Part shown: piece by piece, positions 4,371-33,424 of the stretch | Position numbering within the stretch: the stretch's first letter is position 1 | Layout: the number at the start of each line of letters is the position of its first letter | Sequence record: OR753409.1 | DNA length: 49,578 bases | Reading direction: 5' to 3' (one strand) | Source of the DNA: Enterobacter phage vB_EclS_AS5 | Translations under genes and position numbers: made by a program | The notes under the pieces: generated by a model | What the model was told of the DNA's origin: nothing | Database searches by the model: none | Seen by the model: the letters and a program-made list of their open reading frames with translations, nothing else

Positions 4371-4377
4371 CTTTGGT

Positions 4378-4818: not shown

Positions 4819-4830
4819 ATTAAAACCTCC

Positions 4831-4875: not shown

Positions 4876-4907
4876 ACATTCAATCGGTTAACGAATAAAG
4901 GTTAAAA

Positions 4908-8828: not shown

Positions 8829-8860
8829 CATTTCCAACGAAAACCACTGAGGAAAACGAA

Positions 8861-11923: not shown

Positions 11924-11936
11924 TGCCCCTTTTTTC
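11912..11936. terminator. Bidirectional rho-independent terminator. The spanin stop codon lies in its loop.
   Basis: GGGGCA-taa-TGCCCC followed by TTTTTT, with an A tract upstream. Confidence 0.75.
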
Positions 11937-12451: not shown

Positions 12452-14029
12452 TCACCCCATTAAAGCAGGATTCACAAACACGCGCCCATTCGTGAGGCAT
12501 ACGTAATTCAGATCTTCAAGGATTGGCAGCAAGTGATCCTCAATTCGCTTCATCACGCCAGCCTGACCCAAGAACGGACGAACCTTGCGCACGGATTCGT
12601 AAATCGCTCGTGCAGTGATAGCGCCCTTATTTGCTTTTCCGAGCCTGGTTATCGTGTCGATAATCTTGATCAACTCTGCATCCTGACCAGCATGACCGGA
12701 AGCATTCGCCGCGCTGATGTAGGTCTTGCTTAACTCCTGGAACATCAAGAGCGCCTCCTGCATCGTCTCAACGTCAATATCTCGTGACTTTGTGGCGGTT
12801 CCGTTAACGTCCTGCCAGTTTCGGATCGTGTGGATAACGGAGGCCAGGCGAATAACCTGCTTATCCATTTTACCCAACGCGCCGCGTAGCATTGTGTGAG
12901 AATATTCTCCGCCGTCTGCTAGTTTTGGCTCCATTTCCTGGCGTGCCATGTTGAGCACTCGCATAGCGGAGCGGCTAACCTTCAATGAAACTGATTGCTC
13001 CGTCATGATATTGTGGATCAGCTTGTAATAATCCGCCTTAAGACCTGCATCAACTGGCGTGTAGGTTGTGTCTCCTTTGTCGTCAACAAACTTACGGCGG
13101 CCTAAGAATGATTCCTCGCGCACCAGCAAGAAGCGCTCAGAAACACCGATACCACGAGCACCAGCCTCCATAATGCCGCTGATTGTTTCGTCCTGCGCAA
13201 TCACAGCCATGCAACCGAGAGCCGTAAAGCTCATGTTGTTTTCTGCATTCGCACGGGCAATGGAAACGTGACCGCTATCCCAAGCTTTAAGCACCAATTC
13301 GCTGTTAGTCTTGCGCTCGCTATTGGCGTATGTCAGACCTAGCAATGAGTTTATACTTGTTGCCTCGTCCGATATAACAGCAAAGTTACCCTGGCGGAAG
13401 TTGATTTTAGCCAAGCCCTCTGGAGTGGTATCTGAAACCGGAAACACAACGTCGCACAGTTTTGCGAGCTTTTCCTCGTACTCCTCTTTCTCCTCATAAA
13501 GTGCGGCGTACTCAGTGCCGGAGCGCTCTGATTTTAATTCCTTTGCGATCCCGTTGAGTTTTGCCTGAATCTTTTTGCGCTCTTTCTTACGTTGCTCGTT
13601 GATGCGCTCAACCTCTGCAACAATCGGAGCAATAGCCATTGAGTTGATCGCGGATTTACCAGTAGACGGCGGCTGGCTGGTAACAACGTATAGCGCCGTT
13701 GGCTGATCGGTTCCGTGGTACTCCACTGTGAATCGTCCGAGCATTGCGGCAGACACGCAGCCTACAAAGTGCATATAGGCAGATGAAACAGGGAATTGCA
13801 CAGACTCCGCCAGGCTGCGAGACAACTTGCCTACAACGTCGCAATCGTTGCCGAGGGAAATAACAGGGTATTTGTCGTTTCCGCTGTTAATGTCCTTCAC
13901 GTCACCCCAAAAACCAGACGAGCGAGAGTATCCGTTTGCCTGTATTGCAACCTTAACGGCGCTCAAGCCTTGAGCCTCAGCCGTTGAAATGATTTGTTGT
14001 GGTGTCAGCGTGGATTGTTCAAAAAACAT
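12452..14029 (-). CDS. DUF3987-like P-loop NTPase, a putative replicative helicase or primase-associated ATPase.
   Basis: Walker A QPPSTGKS and Walker B AVISDEA. RBS aaggag. 525 aa. Confidence 0.65.
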   Translation of the reverse strand: MFFEQSTLTPQQIISTAEAQGLSAVKVAIQANGYSRSSGFWGDVKDINSGNDKYPVISLGNDCDVVGKLSRSLAESVQFPVSSAYMHFVGCVSAAMLGRFTVEYHGTDQPTALYVVTSQPPSTGKSAINSMAIAPIVAEVERINEQRKKERKKIQAKLNGIAKELKSERSGTEYAALYEEKEEYEEKLAKLCDVVFPVSDTTPEGLAKINFRQGNFAVISDEATSINSLLGLTYANSERKTNSELVLKAWDSGHVSIARANAENNMSFTALGCMAVIAQDETISGIMEAGARGIGVSERFLLVREESFLGRRKFVDDKGDTTYTPVDAGLKADYYKLIHNIMTEQSVSLKVSRSAMRVLNMARQEMEPKLADGGEYSHTMLRGALGKMDKQVIRLASVIHTIRNWQDVNGTATKSRDIDVETMQEALLMFQELSKTYISAANASGHAGQDAELIKIIDTITRLGKANKGAITARAIYESVRKVRPFLGQAGVMKRIEDHLLPILEDLNYVCLTNGRVFVNPALMG

Positions 14030-14056
14030 CTTAAAGTCTCCTTGTTGGTTGACCCG

Positions 14057-14102
14057 TATTATAGGTAAACCATCTTACAGCCTTTTAGCAATTCGTGCTA
14101 TT
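14057..14102 (-). promoter_or_regulatory. Regulatory cassette on the minus strand: AATAGCACgaatTGCTAAAA, 22 bp, then TATAAT.
   Basis: Reverse complement of 14083-14102 equals the core. The -10 is at 14057-14062. The stop TAG of the upstream gene (14098) lies in the core. Confidence 0.55.
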
Positions 14103-14343
14103 TTAAACGTTCAACTTTTGCGAGAAGTTTCGATCCGTCATGGCTCCAGCATTCGAGCGTTTCAGGATCAAAGTCTAAAGACCTGTGGAATGTGTGACCA
14201 ATCAGCAGATATCCGCCACGTTGACGAATCTGATAAACAGTTTCGCCAACCGTGAATATTGAAATGTCGCTGTATGTCACCTTAAATCTGTTAGCCAGCA
14301 TACTCTTTGGTATGTGGCGCGTGTATTCTACACCTTGAATCAT
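14098..14343 (-). CDS. Hypothetical protein of 81 aa.
   Basis: ORF ending ...KVERLK with TAG inside the cassette core. Confidence 0.5.
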   Translation of the reverse strand: MIQGVEYTRHIPKSMLANRFKVTYSDISIFTVGETVYQIRQRGGYLLIGHTFHRSLDFDPETLECWSHDGSKLLAKVERLK

Positions 14344-14726
14344 GAATATTTCGCCTCGAATAAGTAAGCACCACCAGCAGAGAAACCAACCTCCTCCCGA
14401 TACAGAGTGAAGCGGTCGCCGTCCTCGTCAAAAACGTAGCCAGCAACTCCGCCCAATACGCGCCCTTGTTCGATCTGGTAGCGATTGCCAGCCTTAAACG
14501 TTTTCTTGTGCTTCATGCTATGATCAACCCAAGTACATTTTATTGTTTTTGTCTTGATCTCGCGGAAATCATTAATGTTAGCCTCAGTCCACTTGCTACC
14601 TTTCGTCAGTTCTCGAACCTGGAAAACCTCCATTTCAACGAGTTCACCACTGTCATTGACAGGAACCATTGCCGCTTTAAAGCGTCCATTCATTAATTTG
14701 TTGTCGGCGTTACGGATAACTTTCAT
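14340..14726 (-). CDS. Hypothetical protein of 128 aa.
   Basis: ORF with RBS aaggagtaaataATG. Overlaps the downstream gene as ATGA. Confidence 0.55.
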   Translation of the reverse strand: MKVIRNADNKLMNGRFKAAMVPVNDSGELVEMEVFQVRELTKGSKWTEANINDFREIKTKTIKCTWVDHSMKHKKTFKAGNRYQIEQGRVLGGVAGYVFDEDGDRFTLYREEVGFSAGGAYLFEAKYS

Positions 14727-14755
14727 TATTTACTCCTTTGGTTTGATGTGGTTGC

Positions 14756-14800
14756 ATAATAGCGGATCTTATCGACCCGCTTTTAACAAAAAGTGCTATT
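14756..14800 (-). promoter_or_regulatory. Regulatory cassette on the minus strand: core aatagcactttttgttaaaa, 21 bp, then TATTAT.
   Basis: Reverse complement of 14781-14800. An imperfect hairpin gcgggtc..gatccgc precedes the -10. The Dcm stop TAG lies in the core. Confidence 0.5.
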
Positions 14801-15509
14801 TTGAGTTAGCCAGCCATACAGCAATCGCCAGGCCGCGAGGAGTTAGCGAGCGAATCAGTTTTGTTCGCGCTGATTTACCGCCTAATTTCTTCCAGCCTGG
14901 ATTATCATTACCAACCGGATCCACTGGTAAATGCTCAGGCATCACAAAGCCGTTACCAGTCCAAAGGCAAGTTTTCTTATTGTAAGCGTCGCTCGCTGGG
15001 ATGATATCAGGGAAAGCAGGGTGCGCTTCATCCTTGATATGGATATAGCCGCCATAGTCGCACGGATGGAATTTGTGATCCGGCTTGCGCCATAGCGTTG
15101 ACAGCTTGCCTACAGGGTTTTCGATCATGTACGGAGCGCCAAAGTGATCAGCAATCTCCGCCGCAATCTTGCAGGTCGCCGCCGCCTTAACCTGGAAATC
15201 TGGATCAATCTCTGCTTTTCGCTTCCAGTGGCGAGAGCCGGAGTTTGCAAGGTCAGTACATGGAGGAAACGCCATAATGAAATCAGGCTTACCCCAAAGC
15301 AGGTTGCACGCGCTCGCCTTGAAATCATCGTCAATCCAGGCGTTAACATATTCAATGTTCGGATGCGTTACGCGCACTGACTGGTACGAGCCGTGATCAC
15401 CTTCATCGGCATTGAAGCAGACGACTTTATAACCAGCTTTAGCCCACGGAAGCGCCGCATAGCCGGAGCCGTCGAACATTGAGAAAACCAGGCCTTTACG
15501 TTCAAACAT
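14796..15509 (-). CDS. DNA cytosine-C5 methyltransferase-like protein, small and Dcm-like.
   Basis: Motif I FSMFDGSGYA, motif IV AFPPCTDLANSG (a PC dipeptide) and motif VI MIENPVGKL (ENV). The likely start is MFERKG at 15509 with RBS gaggtg. Confidence 0.55.
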   Translation of the reverse strand: MFERKGLVFSMFDGSGYAALPWAKAGYKVVCFNADEGDHGSYQSVRVTHPNIEYVNAWIDDDFKASACNLLWGKPDFIMAFPPCTDLANSGSRHWKRKAEIDPDFQVKAAATCKIAAEIADHFGAPYMIENPVGKLSTLWRKPDHKFHPCDYGGYIHIKDEAHPAFPDIIPASDAYNKKTCLWTGNGFVMPEHLPVDPVGNDNPGWKKLGGKSARTKLIRSLTPRGLAIAVWLANSK

Positions 15510-15801: not shown

Positions 15802-16029
15802 TCAGGCTTTCCAGGTTTCGATATACATCGAATTTTCATCAAGGAAGTTGATCACATCCTGCTTGCTGTAATGGCGCAGAGTGCAGCGCGGCGACGTTCC
15901 AACGGTGTAGCAGCCTTTACCCTCTGTGATTGTCACTTGCTTGATTTTCTCGCCTGGGATGTCGCACTTGATGATCACGCGGTGATGGCTATCAAGGGTT
16001 TTCATGATGTTTTCGGTTTTGAGTTTCAT
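15802..16029 (-). CDS. Hypothetical protein of 75 aa.
   Basis: ORF with leader ...gaggacaaacgaATG. A terminator-like GGCGGC..GCCGCC stem lies downstream at about 15760-15785. Confidence 0.5.
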   Translation of the reverse strand: MKLKTENIMKTLDSHHRVIIKCDIPGEKIKQVTITEGKGCYTVGTSPRCTLRHYSKQDVINFLDENSMYIETWKA

Positions 16030-16054
16030 TCGTTTGTCCTCGCTCGTTGTCGAT

Positions 16055-16105
16055 GGCGCTACTATACAAGGTCGCAGCGCCGGAGTTTTAACAAAAAGTG
16101 CTATC
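16055..16105 (-). promoter_or_regulatory. Regulatory cassette on the minus strand (class A): core, 22 bp, then TATAGT flanked by the inverted repeat GGCGCT/AGCGCC.
   Basis: Reverse complement of 16086-16105 is the core. The -10 is at 16062-16067 with IR arms at 16055-16060 and 16076-16081. Confidence 0.55.
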
Positions 16106-16182
16106 AGTTCCAGAATGAGTGTCGGGGCGCACGTTTACCATCACCGCCGTAGTGGTCATTGGCTACGGCAATCATCCAGGCG

Positions 16183-16677: not shown

Positions 16678-16941
16678 TTAGTTCTTAACCTGGCTCATGC
16701 GATCCATTTCACGATACCAGATAATCAAATCATCAAGCGCCAGGAACAAGTCAGCTTTCTTTGTCTCCTTGATGGTGTCACAAACCAGGTTGATATCACA
16801 CTCCAGTACGCCAAGGTACTCACCATACTGACGGCAACCTTCAATATTGTCCGCCTTGCTTGTGCGGCGTATGTTGCGCTGCGCACGGCAAATCAGGCTG
16901 ATCACGTTGCTGGTTTCTTTGCTGGTTATGTGATAGGTCAT
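16678..16941 (-). CDS. Hypothetical protein of 88 aa.
   Basis: ATG at 16941 (MTYHITSK...) preceded by the conserved leader catcgaaacgaactgaggaaaacgaaATG. Confidence 0.5.
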   Translation of the reverse strand: MTYHITSKETSNVISLICRAQRNIRRTSKADNIEGCRQYGEYLGVLECDINLVCDTIKETKKADLFLALDDLIIWYREMDRMSQVKN

Positions 16942-16972
16942 TTCGTTTTCCTCAGTTCGTTTCGATGAATGC

Positions 16973-17017
16973 ATTATGCCAAATCCAGATCACGTAGTTT
17001 TAGCAAAAAGTGCTATT
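16973..17017 (-). promoter_or_regulatory. Regulatory cassette on the minus strand driving the leftward early operon: core, 22 bp, then CATAAT.
   Basis: Reverse complement of 16998-17017 is aatagcactttttgctaaaa. The -10 is at 16973-16978. Confidence 0.5.
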
Positions 17018-17024
17018 CAATCGG

Positions 17025-18352: not shown

Positions 18353-18358
18353 TTGGTA

Positions 18359-18403
18359 AATAGCACTTTTTGCTAAAACAGCCCCGCGAGAGTGGGGCAT
18401 AAT
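18359..18403 (+). promoter_or_regulatory. Regulatory cassette (class B): core, hairpin GCCCC..GGGGC, then CATAAT.
   Basis: 22 bp from TTGCTA to CATAAT. Confidence 0.55.
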
Positions 18404-18436
18404 AGCCTCAACTAAACGAATTGAGGAGATAGTAAA

Positions 18437-18685
18437 ATGACTAAAGCACAAGAAATGAAGAACATCATGGAATCAGCAAAGATGATGCTCGAATTTTCAA
18501 CCAAGCAGGAATTGATCGACAACCTTCATAAGGTGTGCATGATTGACAATGCTGGTGATATCGCGTACCGCACTATTTTTGAACAGTACATGAGCATGAG
18601 CGCCGTTCTTCATCCGTCCGTGGCGATTGACAACATTATTGCAGGGATCGAAAAACATGCAGACCACTACAACACGAGTAAGTAA
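18437..18685 (+). CDS. Hypothetical protein of 82 aa.
   Basis: RBS gaggagatagtaaaATG. Confidence 0.55.
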   Translation: MTKAQEMKNIMESAKMMLEFSTKQELIDNLHKVCMIDNAGDIAYRTIFEQYMSMSAVLHPSVAIDNIIAGIEKHADHYNTSK

Positions 18686-18866: not shown

Positions 18867-19054
18867 TCCGATTCAACGTTGACTATCCAGGCTTTAAATC
18901 TGGCAAGACCTATCAAGCAAAATACGCCATGCATCCATATTACGGCTACCTGGCAATCAAGGTTGTGGACGAGGACGGCGATACGCGATACCTGGCGCCT
19001 GGTCTGCTTGAGGATGGCTCAATCGTGGAGGTTGATGAAGATGAAGATCACTAA
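18863..19054 (+). CDS. Hypothetical small acidic protein of 63 aa, a member of the small GK.Y-like family.
   Basis: ATGA overlap. Sequence FKSGKTYQAKY...VDEDEDH. Confidence 0.5.
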   Translation: MIRFNVDYPGFKSGKTYQAKYAMHPYYGYLAIKVVDEDGDTRYLAPGLLEDGSIVEVDEDEDH

Positions 19055-19391
19055 TCAAGCGCGAAACTATGCATTGAAGCACGGTGTTCATATCTACGGC
19101 CTGACCAACGAGCAGAGCCGCGCCATGGTTTTCTACGATATCGCCAGCGGCACAAAGCTATGTACTTACAAGGGCTACAGCGATGATAACCCATTGCAGA
19201 AGTCTATCAACTACAAGATGAAGCCGGAAACCTGGCGAGCCATGCCTGACGATATCCGCACGGCTCAGGGTGTACAAAAAGCAATCGACGCTATGGTTGC
19301 AACTGGCACGGCGCGACTGCTGGACGAGGACGAGATAGCGGAGGCGCGCAACAAGATCCTTAAGCGGTCAACGGGGGTTGAGATCCTATGA
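19035..19391 (+). CDS. Hypothetical protein of 118 aa.
   Basis: ATG at 19035 (MKMKITNQ...) after the RBS tggaggttg. Confidence 0.55.
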   Translation: MKMKITNQARNYALKHGVHIYGLTNEQSRAMVFYDIASGTKLCTYKGYSDDNPLQKSINYKMKPETWRAMPDDIRTAQGVQKAIDAMVATGTARLLDEDEIAEARNKILKRSTGVEIL

Positions 19392-19450
19392 GCAGTTGGC
19401 ACAATGAGCACGTAATGCAATTCTACCGCCAAAGAATAAAGAAAATCCTC

Positions 19451-19501
19451 AATAGCACGAATTGCTAAAACACCAGATCGGGGTTGCGCTATAGTAACCC
19501 C
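19451..19501 (+). promoter_or_regulatory. Regulatory cassette (class A): AATAGCACgaatTGCTAAAA, 22 bp, then TATAGT in the loop of the inverted repeat GGGGTT/AACCCC.
   Basis: Core 19451-19470, -10 at 19490-19495, IR arms at 19480-19485 and 19496-19501. Confidence 0.6.
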
Positions 19502-19532
19502 ATCGAAACGAAACGAACCAAAGGGGTTTAGC

Positions 19533-19712
19533 ATGGATAAGGTTATGATGATGAGCGAAATAAAAGCAGGAATGATGGTTAAGTTCGGTGGAGTCTATCG
19601 CTTGGTTCTGAATAACTGCCGCAAGGAGAACATCCTTACTATCCGCGTGAGAGGCAAGGCTCAACTCATCGCACCTGCTGGAGATATAGAGCTTGAGGTA
19701 AGAATCAAATAG
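19533..19712 (+). CDS. Small hypothetical protein of 59 aa.
   Basis: ATG after gggtttagc. The stop TAG is embedded in the next cassette core. Confidence 0.45.
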   Translation: MDKVMMMSEIKAGMMVKFGGVYRLVLNNCRKENILTIRVRGKAQLIAPAGDIELEVRIK

Positions 19713-19758
19713 CACGAATTGCTAAAAACTGGATCGGGTGTGCTGGTATAGTACACCC
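19708..19758 (+). promoter_or_regulatory. Regulatory cassette (class A): core, 22 bp, then TATAGT flanked by GGGTGT/ACACCC.
   Basis: Core 19708-19727, -10 at 19747-19752, IR arms at 19736-19741 and 19753-19758. Confidence 0.6.
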
Positions 19759-19783
19759 ATACCAAACAACTGAGGAATTAACA

Positions 19784-19951
19784 ATGAAATCTCGCAAATA
19801 CCGCAACATCTTCAACAACCTGGCGTACTGGCTGGAGGACGGCGCTGTCATGGTTAGCAACGGCGAGCAAACAAAGAAATCGCTGTTAAGCGCAGAGGAG
19901 TTTTTCATTGCGGTCGCTCGTGACATTCTGGTACTGATCGAGGAGGAATAA
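19784..19951 (+). CDS. Small hypothetical protein of 55 aa.
   Basis: RBS gaggaattaacaATG. Confidence 0.45.
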   Translation: MKSRKYRNIFNNLAYWLEDGAVMVSNGEQTKKSLLSAEEFFIAVARDILVLIEEE

Positions 19952-19954
19952 TAC

Positions 19955-20197
19955 ATGCTGTCAATTCGCAACTGGTTTATGCGTCTAATCGGGAAAGAGG
20001 TTGATGCTTTCGGCTACAACATTCCGGCAAACTTCAAGCGTGCTTGCCCTGGCAATGCGGCTGGAGTGTATTGGGAAATGCCAGACGGCACATACTGGTT
20101 CACGGTGGTTTCTGGAACGTCAATTGAGGTTAGCGAGCGCGACTATGAGCGCGGCACATGGTTTAAGGCAATGCTGGAAGTAGGGGAGGAATTTTAA
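19955..20197 (+). CDS. Hypothetical protein of 80 aa.
   Basis: ORF coupled to the neighbouring genes. Confidence 0.55.
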   Translation: MLSIRNWFMRLIGKEVDAFGYNIPANFKRACPGNAAGVYWEMPDGTYWFTVVSGTSIEVSERDYERGTWFKAMLEVGEEF

Positions 20198-20733
20198 TGA
20201 TCAAATTTGAGCTTTGGGGTCACACATACCACTTGCGCGGCACTTATGGTGTCGTCATTGTAGACCTGGACGGCACGCTATCGGACGGCACGCACCGCTT
20301 GCACATGATGCCAACAAAAGACCTGCACCTCACTGAAAGCTGGAGCGAGTTTAACAGGGCGGCGCAGAATGACGCGCCAATCCAGGACACGATTGATACT
20401 GTTAACATGCTTTGGAAAGCTGGAATGGGCGTGGTTATCCTGACTGGTCGATCTGATGAGGTGGAAACAGAAACCATCCTTTGGCTAGATCGCCACAAAG
20501 TCAAATATGACTGGCTTATCATGCGCCGCGCCGATGACAACCGCAAGGACACCGTTATCAAAGAGGAGGTATTGCGCACAATCGGCTTGCATCATATTAC
20601 GTGCGCCTTTGATGATTCGCCAAGTGTGATCAAGCACTTCCGCAGCCTGGGGATCACAACCTATCAGGTGACGGAATACGACAAGCCGCACGCTCATTTA
20701 CAGAGTCACGGCGTGGACAAGCTGGATGGATAA
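20197..20733 (+). CDS. HAD-superfamily phosphatase, resembling a Pnk-type 3'-phosphatase or a nucleotidase.
   Basis: Motif I VIVDLDGTL, motif II VILTGR and motif IV AFDDSP. Confidence 0.65.
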   Translation: MIKFELWGHTYHLRGTYGVVIVDLDGTLSDGTHRLHMMPTKDLHLTESWSEFNRAAQNDAPIQDTIDTVNMLWKAGMGVVILTGRSDEVETETILWLDRHKVKYDWLIMRRADDNRKDTVIKEEVLRTIGLHHITCAFDDSPSVIKHFRSLGITTYQVTEYDKPHAHLQSHGVDKLDG

Positions 20734-20938
20734 GATCGTAACTTTTATTTTCGGGGCGGTTATCTCCGCCCTATCAATCCTGCTGGTGTTTATTCTCTGC
20801 GCTGGCATATACATGACGACGAGCGACGATTACACCTGTGAGAAAACAGGTCGCCAGGTTCTCGTGATGTTGCCAGCCGGAAAGGTAATGGTTCCTGTCA
20901 TGCAGGAAGAAACTATTTGCAAGAGGGTAGAGAAATGA
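20726..20938 (+). CDS. Small membrane protein of 70 aa.
   Basis: TMD IFGAVISALSILLVFILCAGIYM. Confidence 0.5.
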   Translation: MDKIVTFIFGAVISALSILLVFILCAGIYMTTSDDYTCEKTGRQVLVMLPAGKVMVPVMQEETICKRVEK

Positions 20939-21150
20939 TTGTGACGCACGATGTAGAGCCAGGCGCGAGCACTGCGCAGGACATGGTTGCCGGAATGCCG
21001 CCAAAATCGCACAGAATGGTGCGTATACGCGGTTATAAATTCAATGTAAGCCAAACACTCAAGGAAATTTTAGCCTTGCCAGAAGTCGATACAGCGATTG
21101 TGGGAGTGCATACAAACGAATATGTTTCTTTCCACATTGTGACGAAATAG
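20935..21150 (+). CDS. Hypothetical protein of 71 aa.
   Basis: ATGA overlap. The stop TAG lies inside the cassette core. Confidence 0.5.
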   Translation: MIVTHDVEPGASTAQDMVAGMPPKSHRMVRIRGYKFNVSQTLKEILALPEVDTAIVGVHTNEYVSFHIVTK

Positions 21151-21190
21151 CACGAATTGCTAAAAACGGGGTGGGCAACCCCGTTATAAT
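21146..21190 (+). promoter_or_regulatory. Regulatory cassette: core, hairpin ACGGGGT..ACCCCGT, then TATAAT.
   Basis: Core 21146-21165, -10 at 21185-21190, 22-bp spacing. Confidence 0.6.
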
Positions 21191-21222
21191 GCACCCATAC
21201 CAACCAACGAGAGGAAAACAAA

Positions 21223-21456
21223 ATGCGAGCAATGATTAAAACAACTGGCGGCTACACTGGCATGAAGAATGTGAAATTACCGCTCACTCTCAAAGCGGTT
21301 TCCAGCGGCTACGGCACTGTAGATGTTAGCATGGCGGAGTTGATTTACCACGGCTACGATTTCGCAGCAGGACAGGCAGACGAGATCCCTGACTGCGAAT
21401 TTAATTCTCAGACACTTACTTTCACCATTGGCGCAGAGGCGGATATTGTAGAATGA
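21223..21456 (+). CDS. Hypothetical protein of 77 aa.
   Basis: RBS gagaggaaaacaaaATG. Confidence 0.55.
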   Translation: MRAMIKTTGGYTGMKNVKLPLTLKAVSSGYGTVDVSMAELIYHGYDFAAGQADEIPDCEFNSQTLTFTIGAEADIVE

Positions 21457-21680
21457 AATTTCAGATCTTTAAGGCGATTGACAAGTTAGACGGCAAGCTT
21501 TCCCTTTTCATGTTCGACGAGGAAAACAATTATACTGTCGTGTGGTACGAAGATGAGAACATAGCAAAACTGGTTAAGGCGGCACGAAAGCGCGGTTGCG
21601 ATTGGTCTGATATACCAGGTAAGAAGTCACGCCGCGACTACATGATTGATCCGGTTCTGCTCTGTGAGATTGAAGCATGA
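21453..21680 (+). CDS. Hypothetical protein of 75 aa, paralogous to the product of 23459..23677.
   Basis: The N-terminus MKFQIFKAIDKLDGKLSLFMF parallels MKFSIYRAIDITDGHDSLFLV. Confidence 0.55.
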   Translation: MKFQIFKAIDKLDGKLSLFMFDEENNYTVVWYEDENIAKLVKAARKRGCDWSDIPGKKSRRDYMIDPVLLCEIEA

Positions 21681-21868
21681 AGTGCATCCGGTCAACATAC
21701 GATCTATTCAAGGCGGGTGAGAGTTACCCGCTAGTTGAGAAAGGCCAGGTCTGGCGGTTCACTGTGTACGAGTACACTGACGCGCAGGGTTGGGTTTATA
21801 CGTTCGGACTCGACGAGAACGGCGAGAACGAAACAGACGGCAATTTCATGAAATTCACAAAGGAGTAA
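21677..21868 (+). CDS. Hypothetical protein of 63 aa.
   Basis: ATGA overlap. Confidence 0.5.
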   Translation: MKCIRSTYDLFKAGESYPLVEKGQVWRFTVYEYTDAQGWVYTFGLDENGENETDGNFMKFTKE

Positions 21869-21872
21869 CAAG

Positions 21873-22103
21873 ATGATTGAGATCAAATTCAAAGGCAACA
21901 CCAAGCGATTCAACGGCGCACCAATCCACAAGGACGCAACGCACGCGGTAGCTGGTCGCAATTTCGGCACTTACTTTAAGCTCAACGGCGAATGGTATTT
22001 CACTGTTTTCCCTGGTTACGCTCTTAAATGCATGGTTGCAGATCAGGATTTTGATATCCGCAAACACATCAAAGACGACGCGGAAATCACAGAGCTTAAA
22101 TAG
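21873..22103 (+). CDS. Hypothetical protein of 76 aa.
   Basis: RBS aaaggagtaacaagATG. The stop TAG lies in the cassette core. Confidence 0.55.
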   Translation: MIEIKFKGNTKRFNGAPIHKDATHAVAGRNFGTYFKLNGEWYFTVFPGYALKCMVADQDFDIRKHIKDDAEITELK

Positions 22104-22150
22104 CACTTTTTGCTAAAGACTTTCCGCGAGGCCATTGTTATAGTGGCCTC
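22099..22150 (+). promoter_or_regulatory. Regulatory cassette (class A): core, then TATAGT flanked by GAGGCCA/TGGCCTC.
   Basis: Core 22099-22118, -10 at 22139-22144, IR arms at 22128-22134 and 22144-22150. Confidence 0.55.
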
Positions 22151-22182
22151 ATTGAAAGCAACCACGCAAACAGGAGATAAAA

Positions 22183-22337
22183 ATGCGTAACTTTGAGAAA
22201 ATCCGCACTAACAAAGACCGCCGCGCTGCTGGTGAGATTGTAGATTCACACCGTCGCCGCAAGAAAACACAAAAGCGCGGGAGTGCGGCAAAGCGCATGA
22301 ATTGGGATCGGCTTCAAACTAACTACAGGGCGAAATA
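22183..22337 (+). CDS. Small, very basic protein of 51 aa.
   Basis: RBS caggagataaaaATG. Rich in K/R (RRRKKTQKRGSAAKR). Confidence 0.45.
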
Positions 22338-22526
22338 ATGTTTACAATGCGTGACCACAGCGAATTGCAGGACAAAACGGCGGAATACCTCCGACAACTT
22401 GCAGACGACATAGAGAGCGGTAAAGTGTGCGTTGACCGCATGACCATCGAATCATCAATCGAATGGTTCAAGATCGAGAAGCGCGAAATCATAATCAACA
22501 CTCAAGAGGTGAAAGACGATGAATAA
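22338..22526 (+). CDS. Hypothetical protein of 62 aa.
   Basis: Starts at the upstream stop as TAATG. Confidence 0.5.
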   Translation: MFTMRDHSELQDKTAEYLRQLADDIESGKVCVDRMTIESSIEWFKIEKREIIINTQEVKDDE

Positions 22527-23091
22527 AAAGGTTATCATCCTCAATGCTCCGCCAGGTGCTGGCAAGGACACAATCGGTGGCCTGATCTGCAAGCACGCGC
22601 CACAATACGTTGTTAAGCGCTCATTCAAAGAGCCGATGTTTAAGATCGCAAAGGCAATGTTGGGTGATTATCGTTTCGGCCTGTTTATGCAATCCTATGA
22701 CGACAGGGAGAGAAAAGAAAAAGCGCAATCTTTCCTGAATGGTAAATCACCTCGCCAGTTTATGATCTGGATTAGCGAGGACGTGATAAAACCTCAGTTT
22801 GGGAATCAGTATTTTGGTACGGTAATGGCTGAGGCGGTGCGAGATAGCCAGGTTCCGGTTGTCATTACTGACGGCGGTTTTCCTGATGAAGTTAAGCCAC
22901 TGGTCAGCGCTGGGGTTCAGGTAAACATTTGCCGACTGCACCGCACAGGATATGCTTTTGATGGTGACAGCCGCGATTATCTAAACCTGGATGGCTACCA
23001 TCACCGCATTGTTACGCGAGATTACATTCTTGTCCATGGTGATCCAATGCACACTGTAGACCAGATTTGCGAGGATATACTAAGTGATTAG
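22519..23091 (+). CDS. P-loop kinase, dNMP-kinase-like.
   Basis: Walker A NAPPGAGKDT resembles the T4 gp1 GxxGSGKDT motif. A second region is VVITDGGFPDE. Confidence 0.55.
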   Translation: MNKKVIILNAPPGAGKDTIGGLICKHAPQYVVKRSFKEPMFKIAKAMLGDYRFGLFMQSYDDRERKEKAQSFLNGKSPRQFMIWISEDVIKPQFGNQYFGTVMAEAVRDSQVPVVITDGGFPDEVKPLVSAGVQVNICRLHRTGYAFDGDSRDYLNLDGYHHRIVTRDYILVHGDPMHTVDQICEDILSD

Positions 23092-23187
23092 CACACCGAA
23101 CGATCCAAAAGAGCCATTTGACTTCCACAAGGCCGCCGTTATCGGCCTTACAATCCTGACCATCTTTTACACTGTGCGAGGTGTTTT

Positions 23188-23385
23188 ATGGCTGTTAACA
23201 CACTAAAGCGAATCGGCGTTATCATGCTAATTATCGGAGGGTCATTGCTAACAGAACCAGGTTTTGCAAACACGGTTGGAAGTATGGCGCTGTTAATTGG
23301 CGGTCTTATTGGCGGCTACATGGACGGCGTAAAGGCTGGGCGGCGTGAGGCGTTCGGCGGCGAAGATAAAAATCCGATCAAATAG
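23188..23385 (+). CDS. Small membrane protein of 65 aa.
   Basis: Two hydrophobic segments. The stop TAG lies in the cassette core. Confidence 0.5.
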   Translation: MAVNTLKRIGVIMLIIGGSLLTEPGFANTVGSMALLIGGLIGGYMDGVKAGRREAFGGEDKNPIK

Positions 23386-23431
23386 CACGAATTGCTAAAA
23401 CAGGTTAAAGGGCTTGCGGTATAGTAAGCCC
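23381..23431 (+). promoter_or_regulatory. Regulatory cassette (class A): core, 22 bp, then TATAGT flanked by GGGCTT/AAGCCC.
   Basis: Core 23381-23400, -10 at 23420-23425, IR arms at 23410-23415 and 23426-23431. Confidence 0.6.
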
Positions 23432-23458
23432 ATACCAAACAAACAGGAGGAAAACGAA

Positions 23459-23677
23459 ATGAAATTCTCTATCTACCGCGCAATCGACATCACTGATGGT
23501 CATGACTCACTTTTCCTTGTTCGTGAGGATAGCAAAGAGGCAATATGTATTTTTTATTTTGCCGACTACCAGATTGACCACCTGAGAGATTGCGCCAAGA
23601 ATTACGAGAATGAATTGTGGTTCTCAAGCGAGAGCCTTATGCGAGAGCAAACACTGATTGAAGTTATTGAGATTTGA
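23459..23677 (+). CDS. Hypothetical protein of 72 aa, paralogous to the product of 21453..21680.
   Basis: RBS caggaggaaaacgaaATG. N-terminus MKFSIYRAIDITDGHDSLF. Confidence 0.55.
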   Translation: MKFSIYRAIDITDGHDSLFLVREDSKEAICIFYFADYQIDHLRDCAKNYENELWFSSESLMREQTLIEVIEI

Positions 23678-23725
23678 CATCACGAATTGCTAAAACTTCC
23701 GCTAGGGCATTTGATATAGTGCCCT
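23678..23725 (+). promoter_or_regulatory. Regulatory cassette with a degenerate core (catcacgaatTGCTAAAA), 22 bp, then TATAGT flanked by AGGGCA/TGCCCT.
   Basis: -10 at 23715-23720, IR arms at 23704-23709 and 23720-23725. Confidence 0.5.
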
Positions 23726-23761
23726 CATTGAAGTAAAGCAACCAATCAAGGAGATAACGAA

Positions 23762-24040
23762 ATGGCTACTATCCGCAAACACCTGGTAAACGCATTCGAG
23801 AACGTTGGCGAGCGCTACGGCTGGGATGATGGACTGAAAACACCTTATACGGCACGCCGCCAGGGTTTCAAATCACTGCGCGAGTGGGCGCGTTGCATGG
23901 CGGCTAACTACATGCCGGAGAACTGGCAACTCATGCCTGACTCGCTGCGCGAAATGATCGAAGAAGCACAGGCGGCAGGTGTGCCACTAACTCAGCATGA
24001 TTTTGACGACTACGCAGAGGAAGAAATTTTATGCTGGTAA
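23762..24040 (+). CDS. Hypothetical protein of 92 aa.
   Basis: RBS caaggagataacgaaATG. Confidence 0.55.
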   Translation: MATIRKHLVNAFENVGERYGWDDGLKTPYTARRQGFKSLREWARCMAANYMPENWQLMPDSLREMIEEAQAAGVPLTQHDFDDYAEEEILCW

Positions 24041-24225
24041 AAATCCGCACGGATTATGAGGACTCGCCGTGGATAGCGGAGGGTAAGATTTACGAGGCGG
24101 TATTGGTCAAAACAGGCCGCTACGCTGGAACATATAAGTTTATTGGGGAGTTAGGCTCCCCATGCTACACAAGGCTTGAGCATTCAATTCATATCGGCGG
24201 AAAAGATTGGGAGATTGTAGAATGA
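24031..24225 (+). CDS. Hypothetical protein of 64 aa, a member of the small GK.Y family.
   Basis: Overlapping start. Contains AEGKIYEAVLVKTGRYAGTYKF. Confidence 0.5.
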   Translation: MLVKIRTDYEDSPWIAEGKIYEAVLVKTGRYAGTYKFIGELGSPCYTRLEHSIHIGGKDWEIVE

Positions 24226-24677
24226 AATATTACGTGCGTCCTACTGTAGATGGTGAAAACTTTACTGCTGGCAAACTCTACGAGATTCAGCATTGTTTTG
24301 GAACTGGTCGCGTTATCGTGCTCAACGATGCAAAAGAGGAAACCATTGTGCGTTGCGATGGTGTTGTGTCGGCTCGCCTGGACTGGCGCGGAAAGTTTGA
24401 GCGCGTGAACATTCCAGGAGCACAAGAAGCGATGGAATCGGCAGAACGCGCTGCGGCTCAAGCGATCAGAATGATGCGAAGCGGTAGCGGCTGGCTAATT
24501 GAGAAAGACGGTGTGTTTATCGCTAGCGGAAATTTCAAGGCGGCAGATAAAGATCCAAATGTCGAAGTCCTGGAAAAGCTGCGTGAAATCCTGCGCGTAC
24601 CGGAGGGTGAGAACATCCTGACACATGCGAAAGTTGTGCGAGTGCTGGCTGATGGGTTAATCAAACTCCAAAAGTAA
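24222..24677 (+). CDS. Hypothetical protein of 151 aa.
   Basis: ATGA overlap. The N-terminus FTAGKLYEIQ is like the small-family motif. Confidence 0.55.
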   Translation: MKYYVRPTVDGENFTAGKLYEIQHCFGTGRVIVLNDAKEETIVRCDGVVSARLDWRGKFERVNIPGAQEAMESAERAAAQAIRMMRSGSGWLIEKDGVFIASGNFKAADKDPNVEVLEKLREILRVPEGENILTHAKVVRVLADGLIKLQK

Positions 24678-24729
24678 AATAGCACTTTTTGCTAAAACTC
24701 AGATGGGGGTAGGCTGGTATAGTTACCCC
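24678..24729 (+). promoter_or_regulatory. Regulatory cassette (class A): core, 23 bp, then TATAGT flanked by GGGGTA/TACCCC.
   Basis: Core 24678-24697, -10 at 24718-24723, IR arms at 24706-24711 and 24724-24729. Leader catcgaaacgaaacggagaaacgaaaATG. Confidence 0.6.
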
Positions 24730-24754
24730 ATCGAAACGAAACGGAGAAACGAAA

Positions 24755-24973
24755 ATGGCAGTATTTACAGAAAGCTACTTTGAAGCACGTCGCACTTATG
24801 GCGCAATCATGGCGGGTTGCCAGTATGAGCTTGTGGCAACCGATGATGGATATGGCCTCGTGATTGACGATTGCGGCACTTGCTACGAGGTGACTTTCGA
24901 TAAGTACGATCCAGATGTGGCTATGCTGAAAAATGCACCACTGATTAAATTTGACCGTGTGGAGGAAGAATGA
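24755..24973 (+). CDS. Hypothetical protein of 72 aa.
   Basis: ORF with the conserved leader and an RBS. Confidence 0.55.
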   Translation: MAVFTESYFEARRTYGAIMAGCQYELVATDDGYGLVIDDCGTCYEVTFDKYDPDVAMLKNAPLIKFDRVEEE

Positions 24974-25230
24974 TCCAGATTAACCTTTCAGTGCAGCAAG
25001 CGCGGCAACTCCTTGAGTCCCTGGGCTGGCGCATCGACATCGGCAATGTGTCGGCTTGTCACGTTGACTCAGAAGTTGCAAAGGAAATGTTTATGCAGCT
25101 TGAGCAAAAGCTGATGCCAGTGGGAACCGAACAGGCGAATCTGGCGGCATGGCGTGCAGAAGCTGGTTACACTGCAAAAGCCGTCGAGGATTGGAAGCGC
25201 AAGAATGAGACAATGGAGGGTTTTGAATGA
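24970..25230 (+). CDS. Hypothetical protein of 86 aa.
   Basis: ATGA overlap. Confidence 0.55.
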   Translation: MIQINLSVQQARQLLESLGWRIDIGNVSACHVDSEVAKEMFMQLEQKLMPVGTEQANLAAWRAEAGYTAKAVEDWKRKNETMEGFE

Positions 25231-27285: not shown

Positions 27286-28857
27286 ATGCTGATTTGGGAA
27301 GATTTAACAGTGGCGCAGAAACGCGCCATTAAAGAAATGAGTGAATACTCGTTCGAGAAAATGATCCGTATATGGTTTCAGTTGCTACAGGGGCAGAAGT
27401 TTTTAGGCAACTGGCATTTCAGCTACTTGTGCCACGAGGTGGAGAAAATCATTTCCGGCGAATCGCAAAACGTGATCTTCAACATCACGCCAGGCTCAGG
27501 TAAGACTGAGGTTTTCTCGATCCATATGTCGCCTTATGCGTCGCTGAAAAGCAAGAAGGTGCGAAACCTCAACTTGTCATTCTCTGATGGCCTTGTCCAG
27601 CAGAACAGCAACCGAATCAAGGAAATTATCGGCTCTCCAGAATGGCAGGAGCTATGGCCTGGCAAGCTGGCGAAAGCGAGCGCGAAAGATCTGATTGTGC
27701 AGGACGGCAACGGCAAGGTTAAATTGCAGGTCAACTCTCGCTCCATCGGCGGACAGGTAACGGGTTTGCGTGGCGGCTACATGGATGATGGATTTACAGG
27801 AATGTTGGTACTTGACGATCCAGATAAACCTGACGACATGTTTTCAAAGGTGCGCCGCGAAGCGATTCACAGCCGCCTCAAAAACACCGTTCGATCTCGT
27901 CGAATGAAAGACACCACGCCTATTGTGATGGTTCAGCAGCGCTTGCACGTCAACGATTCGACGTGGTTTATGACAAGCGGCGGTATGGGTGGCATTGAGT
28001 TTAAGGTTGTAAGCATTCCGGCACTGGTAACGAAAGAGTATGGCGATTCGCTACCTGATTGGTTAAAACCAGAGTTTGAGCGTGACGTGCTGAGTAGCGA
28101 GCCAGTTTACATTGACGGCGTGGCTCATTACTCATTCTGGCCTGCAAAGGAGAGTGCAAAGGACTTGCTCGCACTACGGGAAGCGGATCCGTATACTTTT
28201 GCGTCTCAGTACCAGCAACAGCCAATAGCGCTGGGTGGTAACGTGTTCAAGGTGGATTGGTTCCAGTTTTACGGCGACGGAGAGAAATGCACGCTACCGA
28301 AACCGGATCGCTTTGAATATACGTTTATCACTGGCGATACGGCGCAGAAAGCCGGAGAGCTTAACGACTACTCTGTTTTCTGCTATTGGGGCATGTTCAA
28401 GAATCGCGTTTACTTCATTGACGGCATACGCGGAAAATGGGAGGCTCCAGATCTTGAGACGAATTTCAAGGCTTTCGTCAATCAGTGCTGGAAGCGCAAC
28501 AAGGAGTGTGGCAGCTTGCGCCGGATCCACATAGAGGACAAAGCGAGCGGTACGGGTTTGATTCAGGGTGCGCAAAAGAGCTTGCCTATTGATATAAATC
28601 CCGTTCAGCGCAGCACGGACAAAGTTACACGCGCAATGGATGCCGCGCCAGTTATGCGAGCCGGACGCGTTGCTCTACCAGAGAGTCACCCGATGTTAAA
28701 CGAGATTCTCGCAGAGGTAGCGGCTTTCACTTTCGACGACTCACATCCAAACGACGATATCGTAGATAACATTGTTGATGCTGTTAACGTTGAAATGAAC
28801 CTTGCAGACGATCCAGTTGCGCGAATGAAAAAGCTTGCTGGGCTACGGAAGAAATAG
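27286..28857 (+). CDS. Terminase large subunit.
   Basis: N-terminal ATPase with Walker A ITPGSGKT and Walker B LVLDDPD, plus a C-terminal nuclease region. The stop TAG lies in a cassette core. Confidence 0.9.
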   Translation: MLIWEDLTVAQKRAIKEMSEYSFEKMIRIWFQLLQGQKFLGNWHFSYLCHEVEKIISGESQNVIFNITPGSGKTEVFSIHMSPYASLKSKKVRNLNLSFSDGLVQQNSNRIKEIIGSPEWQELWPGKLAKASAKDLIVQDGNGKVKLQVNSRSIGGQVTGLRGGYMDDGFTGMLVLDDPDKPDDMFSKVRREAIHSRLKNTVRSRRMKDTTPIVMVQQRLHVNDSTWFMTSGGMGGIEFKVVSIPALVTKEYGDSLPDWLKPEFERDVLSSEPVYIDGVAHYSFWPAKESAKDLLALREADPYTFASQYQQQPIALGGNVFKVDWFQFYGDGEKCTLPKPDRFEYTFITGDTAQKAGELNDYSVFCYWGMFKNRVYFIDGIRGKWEAPDLETNFKAFVNQCWKRNKECGSLRRIHIEDKASGTGLIQGAQKSLPIDINPVQRSTDKVTRAMDAAPVMRAGRVALPESHPMLNEILAEVAAFTFDDSHPNDDIVDNIVDAVNVEMNLADDPVARMKKLAGLRKK

Positions 28858-28872
28858 CACGAATTGCTAAAA
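28853..28872 (+). promoter_or_regulatory. Cassette core AATAGCACgaatTGCTAAAA with no -10 at the usual spacing. A terminator follows instead.
   Basis: The core is present but the 22-bp spaced -10 is replaced by a terminator hairpin. Confidence 0.4.
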
Positions 28873-28885
28873 GCGTGTACAATAA

Positions 28886-28911
28886 AGGCTGGACTTTTCC
28901 AGCCTTTTTTA
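28886..28911 (+). terminator. Rho-independent terminator between terL and the portal gene.
   Basis: GGCTGGA-cttt-TCCAGCC followed by TTTTTT. Confidence 0.7.
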
Positions 28912-28928
28912 TTATGGGAGATCAGATA

Positions 28929-30203
28929 ATGACAGAGAAAACAAAACTCGTTAAGGCTGACGGCTACAACGAGATCTTTAAAGGGGAGCAGCGAGTAGAG
29001 ACTCCGTTTTATATGCAGGGAGGCGTTGCAAAGCAGAGCCTAGCAACGTTCTATGAGCGTGACGGCATGGCAAAACGAATCATTGACGTGATCCCGGAGG
29101 ATATGGTTACGCCAGGATTTAACGTTGACGGAGTAAAAGACGAGGCAGCGCTCCGCTCTCTTTGGGATGAGAAAAAAATGGACTCAAAGATCATTGACGC
29201 TCTTTGCTGGTCGCGCTTGTTTGGCGGCTCCGCTATTGTCGCTGTTATCAACGATGGGCGAATGCTGAAATCTCCAGCCAAAGAAGGAGCGCCACTTGAA
29301 GATATTCGCGTTTATGACCGATTCCAGATCCGAGTTGAGAAGCGGGAAACAAACGCGCGTAGCGTGCGCTATGGCGAGCCTGTTTTGTACACCATCATGC
29401 CAGGCGGCGAGATTCCAGAGTATCAGGTGCATTACACGCGAATCTGTATCATTGACGGCGAGCGCTTACCTAACGAGCAGCGCCAAAAAAATGATGGCTG
29501 GGGCGCGTCAATCCTAAACAAAAAGCTGATCGAGGCAATCCATGATTATAACTATTGCGAGGAGTTAGCGACTCAGCTTTTGCGTCGCAAGCAGCAAGCA
29601 GTCTGGAAAGCTAAAGGACTAGCGGATTTGTGCGACGATGAAGAAGGTGTATCTGCGGCGCGTCTGCGATTGGCTCAAGTTGACGACGAGGGCGGCGTTG
29701 GTCGAGCAATCGGAATTGACGCAACGGACGAGGAATACGAGGTGCTTAACTCTGATATTTCCGGCGTTGACGCATTCCTTGAGAAGAAAATGGATCGCAT
29801 CGTTTCGCTTACTGGCATCCATGAAATCATCTTGAAGAACAAAAACACCGGAGGCGTTAGCGCAAGCCAAAACACGGCGCTTGATACATATCACAAGCTG
29901 ATTGAGCGCAAACGCAAAGAGGACTACAAGCCGATCCTGGAATTCATCTTGCCATTCATGATCGCAGAGCAAGAGTGGTCTATTTCGTTTGATCCGCTTT
30001 CGGTTCCTAGCGACAAAGACCAGGCTGAAATCCTGAATAAAAACATTGACTCGATCAGCAAGGCGATTGAAGGTCAGTTTATGGATGTTGAGGAAGGACG
30101 CGACACATTGCGCTCTATCGCTCCGTCTCTTAAACTGAAAGACGGAAACAAAATTAAGCTACCGGAGCCGGAGCAGGAGCCGGAGCCAGGAACGGAGGTT
30201 TAA
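28929..30203 (+). CDS. Portal protein.
   Basis: 424 aa, immediately after terL. RBS gggagatcagataATG. Confidence 0.85.
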   Translation: MTEKTKLVKADGYNEIFKGEQRVETPFYMQGGVAKQSLATFYERDGMAKRIIDVIPEDMVTPGFNVDGVKDEAALRSLWDEKKMDSKIIDALCWSRLFGGSAIVAVINDGRMLKSPAKEGAPLEDIRVYDRFQIRVEKRETNARSVRYGEPVLYTIMPGGEIPEYQVHYTRICIIDGERLPNEQRQKNDGWGASILNKKLIEAIHDYNYCEELATQLLRRKQQAVWKAKGLADLCDDEEGVSAARLRLAQVDDEGGVGRAIGIDATDEEYEVLNSDISGVDAFLEKKMDRIVSLTGIHEIILKNKNTGGVSASQNTALDTYHKLIERKRKEDYKPILEFILPFMIAEQEWSISFDPLSVPSDKDQAEILNKNIDSISKAIEGQFMDVEEGRDTLRSIAPSLKLKDGNKIKLPEPEQEPEPGTEV

Positions 30204-33343: not shown

Positions 33344-33424
33344 CACAAAAACCTATTGCACGTTTAACAAAAAGTGCTATCATTGAGGCTGTTAATCGCT
33401 AACAGCCTTTTAAGGAGAAGAAAC

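Follow-up and report, generated by a model that had tools for sequence, protein, structure and literature searches.

The 49.6-kb sequence of Enterobacter phage vB_EclS_AS5 (OR753409.1, 49,578 nucleotides (nt); "the window" below means this whole stretch) corresponds approximately to the complete genome of a T1-like siphophage, Henuseptimavirus-like within the Drexlerviridae. Positions 19000-25000 are 84-90% identical in megablast to the Escherichia phages Henu7, JohannLBurckhardt and IsaakIselin and to Klebsiella phage Samwise, all of which belong to the genus Henuseptimavirus (Drexlerviridae, Tempevirinae). The biggest open reading frames (ORFs) of the window encode a tail fibre (1320 aa), a tape measure protein (1009 aa) and helicases; no RNA polymerase or sigma factor is found among the largest of them or annotated in the genomes of five relatives, and the paper on the T1-like phage TLS reports none for that phage (PMC11447400). 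The subject of this analysis is a repeated intergenic cassette in which inverted repeats of variable sequence accompany a -10 hexamer. Cassettes were compared in a set of 364 unique copies, drawn from the window, five complete relatives and 120 IMG/VR stretches.

The cassettes follow a common order: a stop codon of the upstream gene, a 21-nt box (aaATAGCACnnnTTGnTAAAA), a stem-loop, a -10 hexamer, a C-1/A+1 dinucleotide, an A/C-rich leader, a Shine-Dalgarno sequence (SD) and the ATG of the next gene. The pattern TAGCACGAATTGCTAAA, with up to three mismatches, occurs 18 times in the window against 0.16 expected, and a looser box pattern brings the number to 21. The box occurs in the subtypes GAA, TTT and AAA, is co-oriented with transcription and lies about 76 nt 5' of start codons. 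In most window cassettes the upstream stop falls in or just before it (e.g., TAG at 19710, 21148, 22101, 23383 and 28855), while SD and ATG follow 30-35 nt past the predicted +1. Cassettes in which the stem-loop spans the -10 are referred to as class A; in class B the hairpin lies in the spacer and ends at the hexamer.

The downstream half of the cassette has the features of a promoter. A hexamer (TATAGT, CATAAT, TATTAT or TATAAT) begins exactly 36 nt past the A of AGCAC in 234 of the 364 unique cassettes, a fixed 22 bp past the TTGnTA of the box, so that its description in a first-pass annotation of this DNA as a genuine -10-like element holds. G-14 is present in 205 of these 234 cassettes, C-1 in 187 and A+1 in 204, the C-A step lying 6-7 nt past the hexamer. 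Together these positions form what reads as the signature of an extended -10 promoter, with the predicted +1 at the A; in this numbering, the box occupies about -52 to -32. No -35 hexamer lies 16-18 bp from the -10 hexamer, the 21-nt box being present further upstream instead, and a scan for consensus promoters did not pick up the cassettes. The spacer is G-rich and the discriminator C-rich.

The inverted repeats listed in the first-pass annotation are all present, the eight of class A at the coordinates given below and the three of class B just 5' of CATAAT or TATAAT. Their excess was assessed by re-pairing, in which the upstream half of each cassette is joined to the downstream half of another, so that the G-rich spacer and the C-rich discriminator are kept. 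In the window, 13 cassettes show the standard offset of the hexamer, and in five of these it is bracketed by a stem of at least 6 bp (0.24 ± 0.46 under the null; none of 1000 re-pairings reached five); family-wide, the same is true of 82 of the 234 unique cassettes (7.6 ± 2.7 under the null). The arms themselves are not conserved in sequence: dozens of different pairs occupy the same positions (e.g., AAGGCCA/TGGCCTT, GAGGACA/TGTCCTC, GGAGACA/TGTCTCC, TGAGTGCA/TGCACTCA, GGGATG/CATCCC and GGGGCC/GGCCCC). In an ungapped alignment of 31 sequences, picked by loop motif only and scored against a two-helix structure (A1), 91.8% of the cells pair, compared with 78.6% in column shuffles (0 of 500 reached the observed value) and 40-53% when the partners are slid by one to three columns. 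Of the 13 pairs, eight show compensatory changes, and a single position displays six pair types; the compensatory pairing that the annotation proposed to look for in homologous cassettes of related phages is found. The inverted repeats are confirmed as real, above chance and composition, and family-wide, and the claim that pairing rather than a protein-binding sequence is selected, since the arms co-vary at a fixed geometry, stands.

Several independent lines point to RNA of the sense strand as the molecule that pairs, and not to DNA as had been proposed. At the variable stem positions of A1, G:U or U:G pairs number 16 and A:C or C:A only two, and one U:G pair is invariant in 31 of 31 sequences. 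Since a G:U pair on the sense strand corresponds to an A:C mismatch on the other DNA strand, this wobble asymmetry points to sense-strand RNA. Among 60 distinct tetraloops, 17 are GNRA and four UNCG, for which about 3% and 1.6% would be expected at equal base frequencies. From the box to +10, the mean folding energy is -12.6 kcal/mol for the sense RNA, -10.8 for the antisense RNA and -5.4 for shuffled sequences; 164 cassettes fold better as sense RNA and 68 as antisense, with a mean advantage of 1.8 kcal/mol for the sense, whereas composition-matched shuffles favour the antisense by 1.6. In the window, the RNA hairpins reach -14 to -20 kcal/mol (z -2 to -4.7). Many class A copies additionally possess a co-varying outer helix (CTTC/GAAG, CTTG/CAAG or CTTTC/GAAAG) that reaches +4 to +8 of the downstream transcript, for which a DNA structure at the promoter would have no use.

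The placement of the -10 in a loop, as first described, is correct in part. The class A arms do bracket the hexamer, but the RNA stem extends into the supposed loop: within TATAGT, the GT finds its partner in an upstream GC or UU. The association of TATAGT with class A is strong (odds ratio 8.5, p 3e-11). When the RNA is folded, the G of this hexamer is paired with C in 22 cassettes and with U in 17, and the last T with an A (32) or G (24) of the 5' arm, which gives an RNA hairpin of 8-10 bp with a loop of 3-6 nt. An initial count of G:U against A:C on bridging mismatches (35 to 7) was discarded, being confounded by the conserved gcTGgTATAGT motif. Rfam covariance models gave no match at the gathering score on either strand of the whole window.

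The presence of the hairpin depends on the gene in front. Of the 206 cassettes that are preceded by a co-directional ORF, 169 have a hairpin of -9 kcal/mol or lower; of the 18 that are not, five do (Fisher p 3e-6, inflated by orthologues). Both heads of divergent units in the window retain the box, the hexamer and the C-A step with no significant hairpin (at most -2.3 and -4.4 kcal/mol, respectively). The first of them, in front of a helicase gene (4830-4910 (+); box 4830-4850, -10 TATTAT 4870-4875, C-1/A+1 4881-4882), reaches only -1.4 to -2.3 kcal/mol, according to which segment is folded (z +1.2), and the second, which heads a leftward unit (16939-17018 (-); box 16998-17018, -10 CATAAT 16973-16978), at -4.4 kcal/mol. 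As these cassettes keep the promoter parts, the hairpin is dispensable for promoter architecture and is associated with incoming transcription. The hairpin was originally held to be absent from mRNA because +1 lies downstream. The genomic context does not support this: the cassettes lie inside long co-directional gene arrays, where any polymerase reading through from upstream would transcribe the hairpin.

The hairpin slides between the spacer and the -10 among cassettes, and a minority extend to full terminators. At least five T within 8 nt past the stem are present in 2 of 69 class A and 10 of 114 class B cassettes; within the window, only the stem-loops at 28884-28907 and 4335-4374 (-) meet this canonical intrinsic terminator criterion. 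The former belongs to a cassette past the large terminase gene (28852-28931 (+); box 28852-28872) and consists of AAAGGCTGG/CCAGCCTTT followed by a T-run that merges into TATTAT. The latter (ATCGCGTA/TACGCGAT then T7, -20.8 kcal/mol) lies between the regulator and primase genes (cassette 4317-4396 (-)) and holds a -10-like TATCAT (4352-4357) in its loop. In the relatives, hairpins of the A-tract/UUCG/T-tract type occur whose T-run likewise merges into TATTAT. The resemblance to intrinsic (Rho-independent) terminators thus comprises G/C-rich stem-loops, GNRA and UUCG loops and a position just past the stop codon, and in a few cassettes (28884-28907, 4335-4374 (-) and several in relatives) also a full T-run; it ends at class A, which is almost devoid of U past the stem, and at class B, in which the hexamer (AUAAU) follows and no U-tract.

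Composite cassettes of promoter and terminator are known from the T4-like phages RB49 and phi1 as promoter-early stem-loops (PeSLs), which mediate modular shuffling (Arbiol et al. 2010, PMC2839356; Comeau et al. 2014, PMC4122927); one PeSL stem-loop lowered expression of a downstream reporter in vivo about as much as rrnB T1 (PMC2839356). Both kinds of cassette are repeated between genes, starting at the upstream stop codon and reaching as far as the SD and ATG, and both contain a host sigma70-type promoter (here predicted from sequence) together with a sequence-variable, G/C-rich stem-loop with G-T pairs, this stem-loop either overlapping the -10 or lying between it and the -35 region. In both cases the cassettes gather around small ORFan early genes and coincide with junctions of insertion, deletion and replacement. 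The present cassettes differ in belonging to a T1-like siphovirus, with no sequence homology to PeSLs, and in having the -35 hexamer and AT-rich UP region replaced by the 21-nt box (palindrome at about -42) and a conserved G-14. Most of their stem-loops lack a U-tract.

Signs of such shuffling are also found here. Ends of megablast high-scoring segment pairs against five Henuseptimavirus genomes fall inside cassettes in 30 of 68 cases, compared with the 8.8% expected from the cassette share of the region; the breakpoints lie in the box (-6 to +18) or in the leader and SD (+56 to +84), never in the hairpin. The ORFs 19533-19712 (phrog_8121) and 23459-23677 are each flanked by two cassettes (window 19515-19707 and 23402-23680) and have no match there in the five genomes, which possess a single cassette at these places. 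Breakpoints and cassette-flanked ORFs amount to PeSL-like gene shuffling. The best-supported classification of the cassette is as a T1-type variant of the PeSL idea, the principle itself being already known.

The box has been noticed before. The TLS paper lists a 21-nt intergenic direct repeat of TLS and other T1-like phages, of unknown function, which is posed as an open question with a stoperator, an enhancer or an UP element suggested (Kropinski, Misra and colleagues 2024, PMC11447400); it is the same element, aaATAGCACnnnTTGnTAAAA, with the same subtypes and orientation, and in the available part of that paper is described without a fixed -10 22 bp downstream, a C-1/A+1 or covarying stem-loops. 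In a literature search, the repeat was mentioned in this paper only and earlier accounts of the cassette hairpins were not found.

From the observed presence, covariation and fixed geometry of the arms, their sense-strand RNA signatures, their dependence on a co-directional upstream gene and the homology breakpoints at cassettes, the inverted repeats are best explained, with a probability of roughly 0.7, as RNA stem-loops of read-through transcripts, forming half of a composite repeated cassette that is laid over the free positions of the next promoter. The stem-loop would form in transcripts arriving from the upstream gene. With only about 50 nt from the box to +1, its arms would be confined to promoter positions that tolerate any sequence; these are found in the spacer, at about -30 to -13, and in the discriminator, at -6 to -1. 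In class A the -10 would thereby come to lie within the loop or close to it, and in class B directly 3' of the hairpin. A transcript started by the cassette itself would begin at the base of the 3' arm and lack the hairpin, which only read-through RNA would carry. There, the most likely effect of the stem-loop is to attenuate or terminate transcription coming from upstream and/or to protect the upstream message at its 3' end; as an outcome, each small early gene would be expressed mainly from its own promoter. Promoter activity, the position of +1, read-through and the termination or stabilisation function are predictions in this scheme.

Several points weigh against this explanation. The comparative cassettes are partly orthologous, and the p-values overstate their independence. 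Counted family-wide with both transition mismatches treated alike, the wobble excess is weaker (G:U 18 against A:C 5, related cassettes recurring) and does not clearly exceed the 309 to 135 of a re-pairing null, which is itself contaminated by real class B stems; reliance is placed on A1 and on the comparison of sense and antisense folds. The class A cores are perfectly Watson-Crick paired and equally compatible with pairing in DNA. With their U-poor tails, class A hairpins fall outside the canonical intrinsic terminators of E. coli RNA polymerase, and we infer the exact role at the RNA level (attenuation or termination, 3'-end protection, or both). Finally, a literature search on T1-like phages and Drexlerviridae found no transcription start site, transcript-end or transcriptome data.

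The strongest competitor, possible if unlikely, restricts the stem-loops to processing and stability: a barrier to 3' exonucleases, a block to RNase E scanning, or an insulator keeping the leader unpaired in polycistronic RNA. The U-poor tails of class A (on average 0.55 T in the 8 nt past the stem) would suit such a role, as would the single strong plus-strand match of a terminator scan of 17-29 kb (at 28884), the pairing of the outer helix with +4 to +8 of the leader, and the scarcity of U and G in the leaders. A subset of the cassettes, however, has canonical terminators at the same place, and the PeSL stem-loop reduced its reporter in vivo about as much as a strong terminator did. A classical RNase III site was considered and rejected, helices of 9 + 4 bp being too short; the same shortness counts against stability as the sole function.

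An extension to two levels of action appears doubtful, and distinctly more so than a role in stability. Here, the RNA stem-loops would be joined by an effect of the arms in the spacer and the G/C-rich discriminator (ending exactly at -1), through which these promoters, box-dependent and -35-less, could also respond to supercoiling or to an upstream polymerase passing by. Termination at the hairpin could hand RNA polymerase directly to the overlapping promoter, or the arms could be transiently extruded behind a transcribing polymerase. If true, the cassette would be a coupled terminator-promoter switch instead of two independent overlapping signals.

Very little speaks for the original proposal that DNA hairpins or cruciforms expose the -10 in single-stranded form, which would make the promoters dependent on supercoiling or single-stranded DNA, as in the N4 early or plasmid single-strand promoter type. 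It accounts for arms that flank the -10 at a conserved geometry and co-vary, for class A cores in which both DNA strands could pair, and for the missing -35 hexamer, which requires some unusual activation; yet G:U-rich stems would leave A:C mismatches on the other strand, folding is biased towards the sense strand, and GNRA and UUCG loops are enriched. The stability of the DNA hairpins, which was to be predicted for each copy, is only -5 to -10 kcal/mol per strand, with bottom-strand loops of 8-10 nt. Loops or spacers of this length make cruciform extrusion very unfavourable, as the gain does not repay the melting of 22-30 bp of duplex. Cassettes at unit heads have the box and the -10 with no hairpin, and class B hairpins and T-run terminators sit elsewhere in the same cassette. 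N4 early promoters are used by a virion RNA polymerase and consist of a 5-7 bp stem and a 3-nt loop of defined sequence, with conserved bases at fixed positions. In single-strand promoters (Frpo/ssi), the -35 and -10 are rebuilt inside the stem of a long single-stranded DNA hairpin of a replicon that enters the cell single-stranded. The likeness to both ends with an inverted repeat at a promoter. In contrast to N4, no phage polymerase is encoded here, as judged from the relatives' annotation and the largest window ORFs, the loops are 6-17 nt long and contain a sigma70 -10 hexamer, and the arms are unconserved; in contrast to Frpo/ssi, the -10 is in the loop and not in the stem, no -35 is present, and T1-type phages have double-stranded DNA.

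That no structure is selected, and that composition or recombination between cassettes has produced the arms as a by-product, is hardly credible at all: the spacer is G-rich, the discriminator C-rich and the cassettes are recombination junctions, but the composition-keeping null yields 7.6 stems where 82 are observed, slid partners pair at just 40-53%, and compensatory changes are present at eight of 13 pairs, one position having as many as six pair types.

Individually, the window cassettes vary within the common plan. The class A cassette at 19450-19535 (+) has its box at 19450-19470 and its stem-loop at 19476-19504 (core GGGGTT/AACCCC, 19480-19501; -16.6 kcal/mol, z -4.0), with the -10 TATAGT at 19490-19495, the predicted +1 at 19502 (C-1 A+1) and the ATG at 19533. 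In the next one (19707-19786 (+)), the box (19707-19727) includes the TAG stop of ORF 19533-19712; its stem-loop (19730-19764; core GGGTGT/ACACCC, 19736-19758; -17.7 kcal/mol, z -3.8) is followed by a predicted +1 at about 19759 and the ATG at 19784, the -10 TATAGT being at 19747-19752. The cassette at 23380-23461 (+) comprises a box (23380-23400), a stem-loop (23403-23436; GGGCTT/AAGCCC, 23410-23431; -17.1 kcal/mol, z -4.2), the -10 TATAGT (23420-23425), a predicted +1 at about 23432 and the ATG at 23459. The one at 24677-24757 (+) folds at -14.2 kcal/mol (z -2.0; box 24677-24697, stem-loop 24699-24734 with GGGGTA/TACCCC at 24706-24729, -10 TATAGT 24718-24723, predicted +1 about 24730, ATG 24755).

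Two class A cassettes have the outer helix. At 22098-22185 (+), the box (22098-22118) precedes a two-helix stem-loop (22120-22158; GAGGCCA/TGGCCTC at 22128-22150 plus CTTTC/GAAAG; -19.6 kcal/mol, z -4.7) with the -10 TATAGT at 22139-22144, the predicted +1 at about 22151 and the ATG at 22183. At 23675-23764 (+), a degenerate box (23675-23695) adjoins the stem-loop (23695-23734; AGGGCA/TGCCCT at 23704-23725 plus ACTTC/GAAGT; -16.5 kcal/mol, z -4.2), with the -10 TATAGT at 23715-23720, the predicted +1 at about 23727 and the ATG at 23762. The box is degenerate also at 49129-49210 (+) (box 49129-49149), where the stem-loop (49151-49187; ATGGAGG/CCTCCAT, 49158-49181; -13.8 kcal/mol, z -3.5) spans a TATAAT (49168-49173) and the predicted +1 and ATG lie at about 49180 and at 49208. 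On the minus strand, the class A cassette at 16027-16106 (-) has its box at 16086-16106, a stem-loop at 16055-16081 (GGCGCT/AGCGCC, loop of 11-15 nt; -15.4 kcal/mol), the -10 TATAGT at 16061-16066, a predicted +1 at about 16054 and the ATG at 16029-16027. A weakened copy is found at 14027-14103 (-), where the stem (14046-14072; TGGTTtACC/GGTcAACCA) has one T.C mismatch; in Henu7, JohannLBurckhardt and Samwise the same stem pairs perfectly over 9 bp.

Class B is represented by four of the cassettes described here. At 21145-21225 (+), the box (21145-21165) contains the upstream stop, and the spacer stem-loop (21165-21185; ACGGGGT/ACCCCGT) leads into the -10 TATAAT (21185-21190), a predicted +1 at about 21197 and the ATG at 21223. 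G:U pairs occur in the other three: at 8783-8863 (+) (box 8783-8803, stem-loop 8804-8825, -10 CATAAT 8823-8828, ATG 8861; -15.5 kcal/mol, z -4.4), at 18358-18439 (+) (box 18358-18378, stem-loop 18381-18398 with GCCCCGC-GAGA-GUGGGGC, that is, a GNRA loop and a G:U pair, -10 CATAAT 18398-18403, ATG 18437; -15.4 kcal/mol) and at 14724-14801 (-) (box 14781-14801, stem-loop 14761-14781 with AGCGGGTC/GATCCGCT, -10 TATTAT 14756-14761).

The box holds a palindrome, TAGCA-N5-TGCTA, which is centred at -42 if the hexamer is placed at -12 to -7. Class II activators are positioned at -42, as is lambda cI at PRM. Within the 3' half-site, the only frequent variation, C or T (151 to 81), faces a G of the 5' half-site, as would also be fitting for a small RNA hairpin (G:C or G:U). 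A candidate binder of the box, for which no binding claim is made, is the product of ORF 4378-4854 (-) (158 aa), which the annotation of relatives calls a transcriptional regulator or a lambda-repressor-like protein and which matches phrog_2856 (E 1e-72); in Pfam, Cro/YdaS-like matches were obtained below threshold only. Other assignments of the promoter were rejected. A sigma54 promoter would require TGGCAC-N5-TTGC, and by inspection TAGCAC-N3-TTGC is 2 nt short in spacing with AG for GG. The CCCCAT of a sigma32 -10 occurs in some 3' arms, but without CTTGAAA at 13-15 nt, and is missing from other arms. TTGCTA as a -35 lies 22 bp from the hexamer, and hairpin extrusion would shorten this distance to about 1-5 bp in class B and take away the -10 itself in class A.

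The leaders past each +1 (e.g., 19502-19532, 19759-19783 and 23727-23761) are 25-35 nt long, A/C-rich and poor in U and G, and may act as unstructured translation enhancers. Motifs that recur in them before the SD (ATCGAAACGAAAC, ATACCAAACAA and ATTGAAGCAAAGCAACCAATCA) double as recombination junctions (+56 to +84).

A few further sites resemble parts of the cassette. At 9124-9189 (+), a box copy (TAGCACGAATTGCCAAA) and a 6-7 bp hairpin (GCTGAT/ATCAGC) around TAGTAT/TATTAT lie inside ORF 8994-9308 and not between genes, and may represent an internal promoter or a relic. The order is reversed at 43285-43372 (+), 5' of the 1320-aa tail-fibre gene: a terminator (CCCCGCATTGCGGGG then a T-run) comes first, followed by GTTGC-TATAAT-GCAAC (43308-43323) and a degenerate box (43328-43348) that runs straight into the SD and ATG. 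The perfect palindrome AAAGGGG-CATAAT-G-CCCCTTT at 11912-11932, with T/A runs on both sides at a convergent junction of gene blocks, resembles a bidirectional terminator whose loop happens to contain a -10-like hexamer. A box-like match at 33362-33382 (-) (TAGCACTTTTTGTTAAA), at the start of an ORF that corresponds by position to the relatives' major capsid gene, is probably non-functional, as neither a -10 nor a hairpin is found downstream.

For the scanning of genomes, these cassettes indicate that an inverted repeat over a -10 box is best checked first as an RNA element of the upstream transcript. For the T1-like phages, they place the 21-nt repeat at a fixed -52 to -32 of a predicted -35-less promoter, followed by a covarying RNA stem-loop, and thereby give a concrete, testable answer to part of the question raised by the TLS repeat. 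The layout also explains why promoters and terminators are nearly absent from consensus scans of early regions, and provides a testable transcription map for the early regions of Drexlerviridae, with one promoter and one stem-loop per small gene. Together with the PeSLs, it suggests that two unrelated groups of phages acquired cassette-mediated gene shuffling independently.

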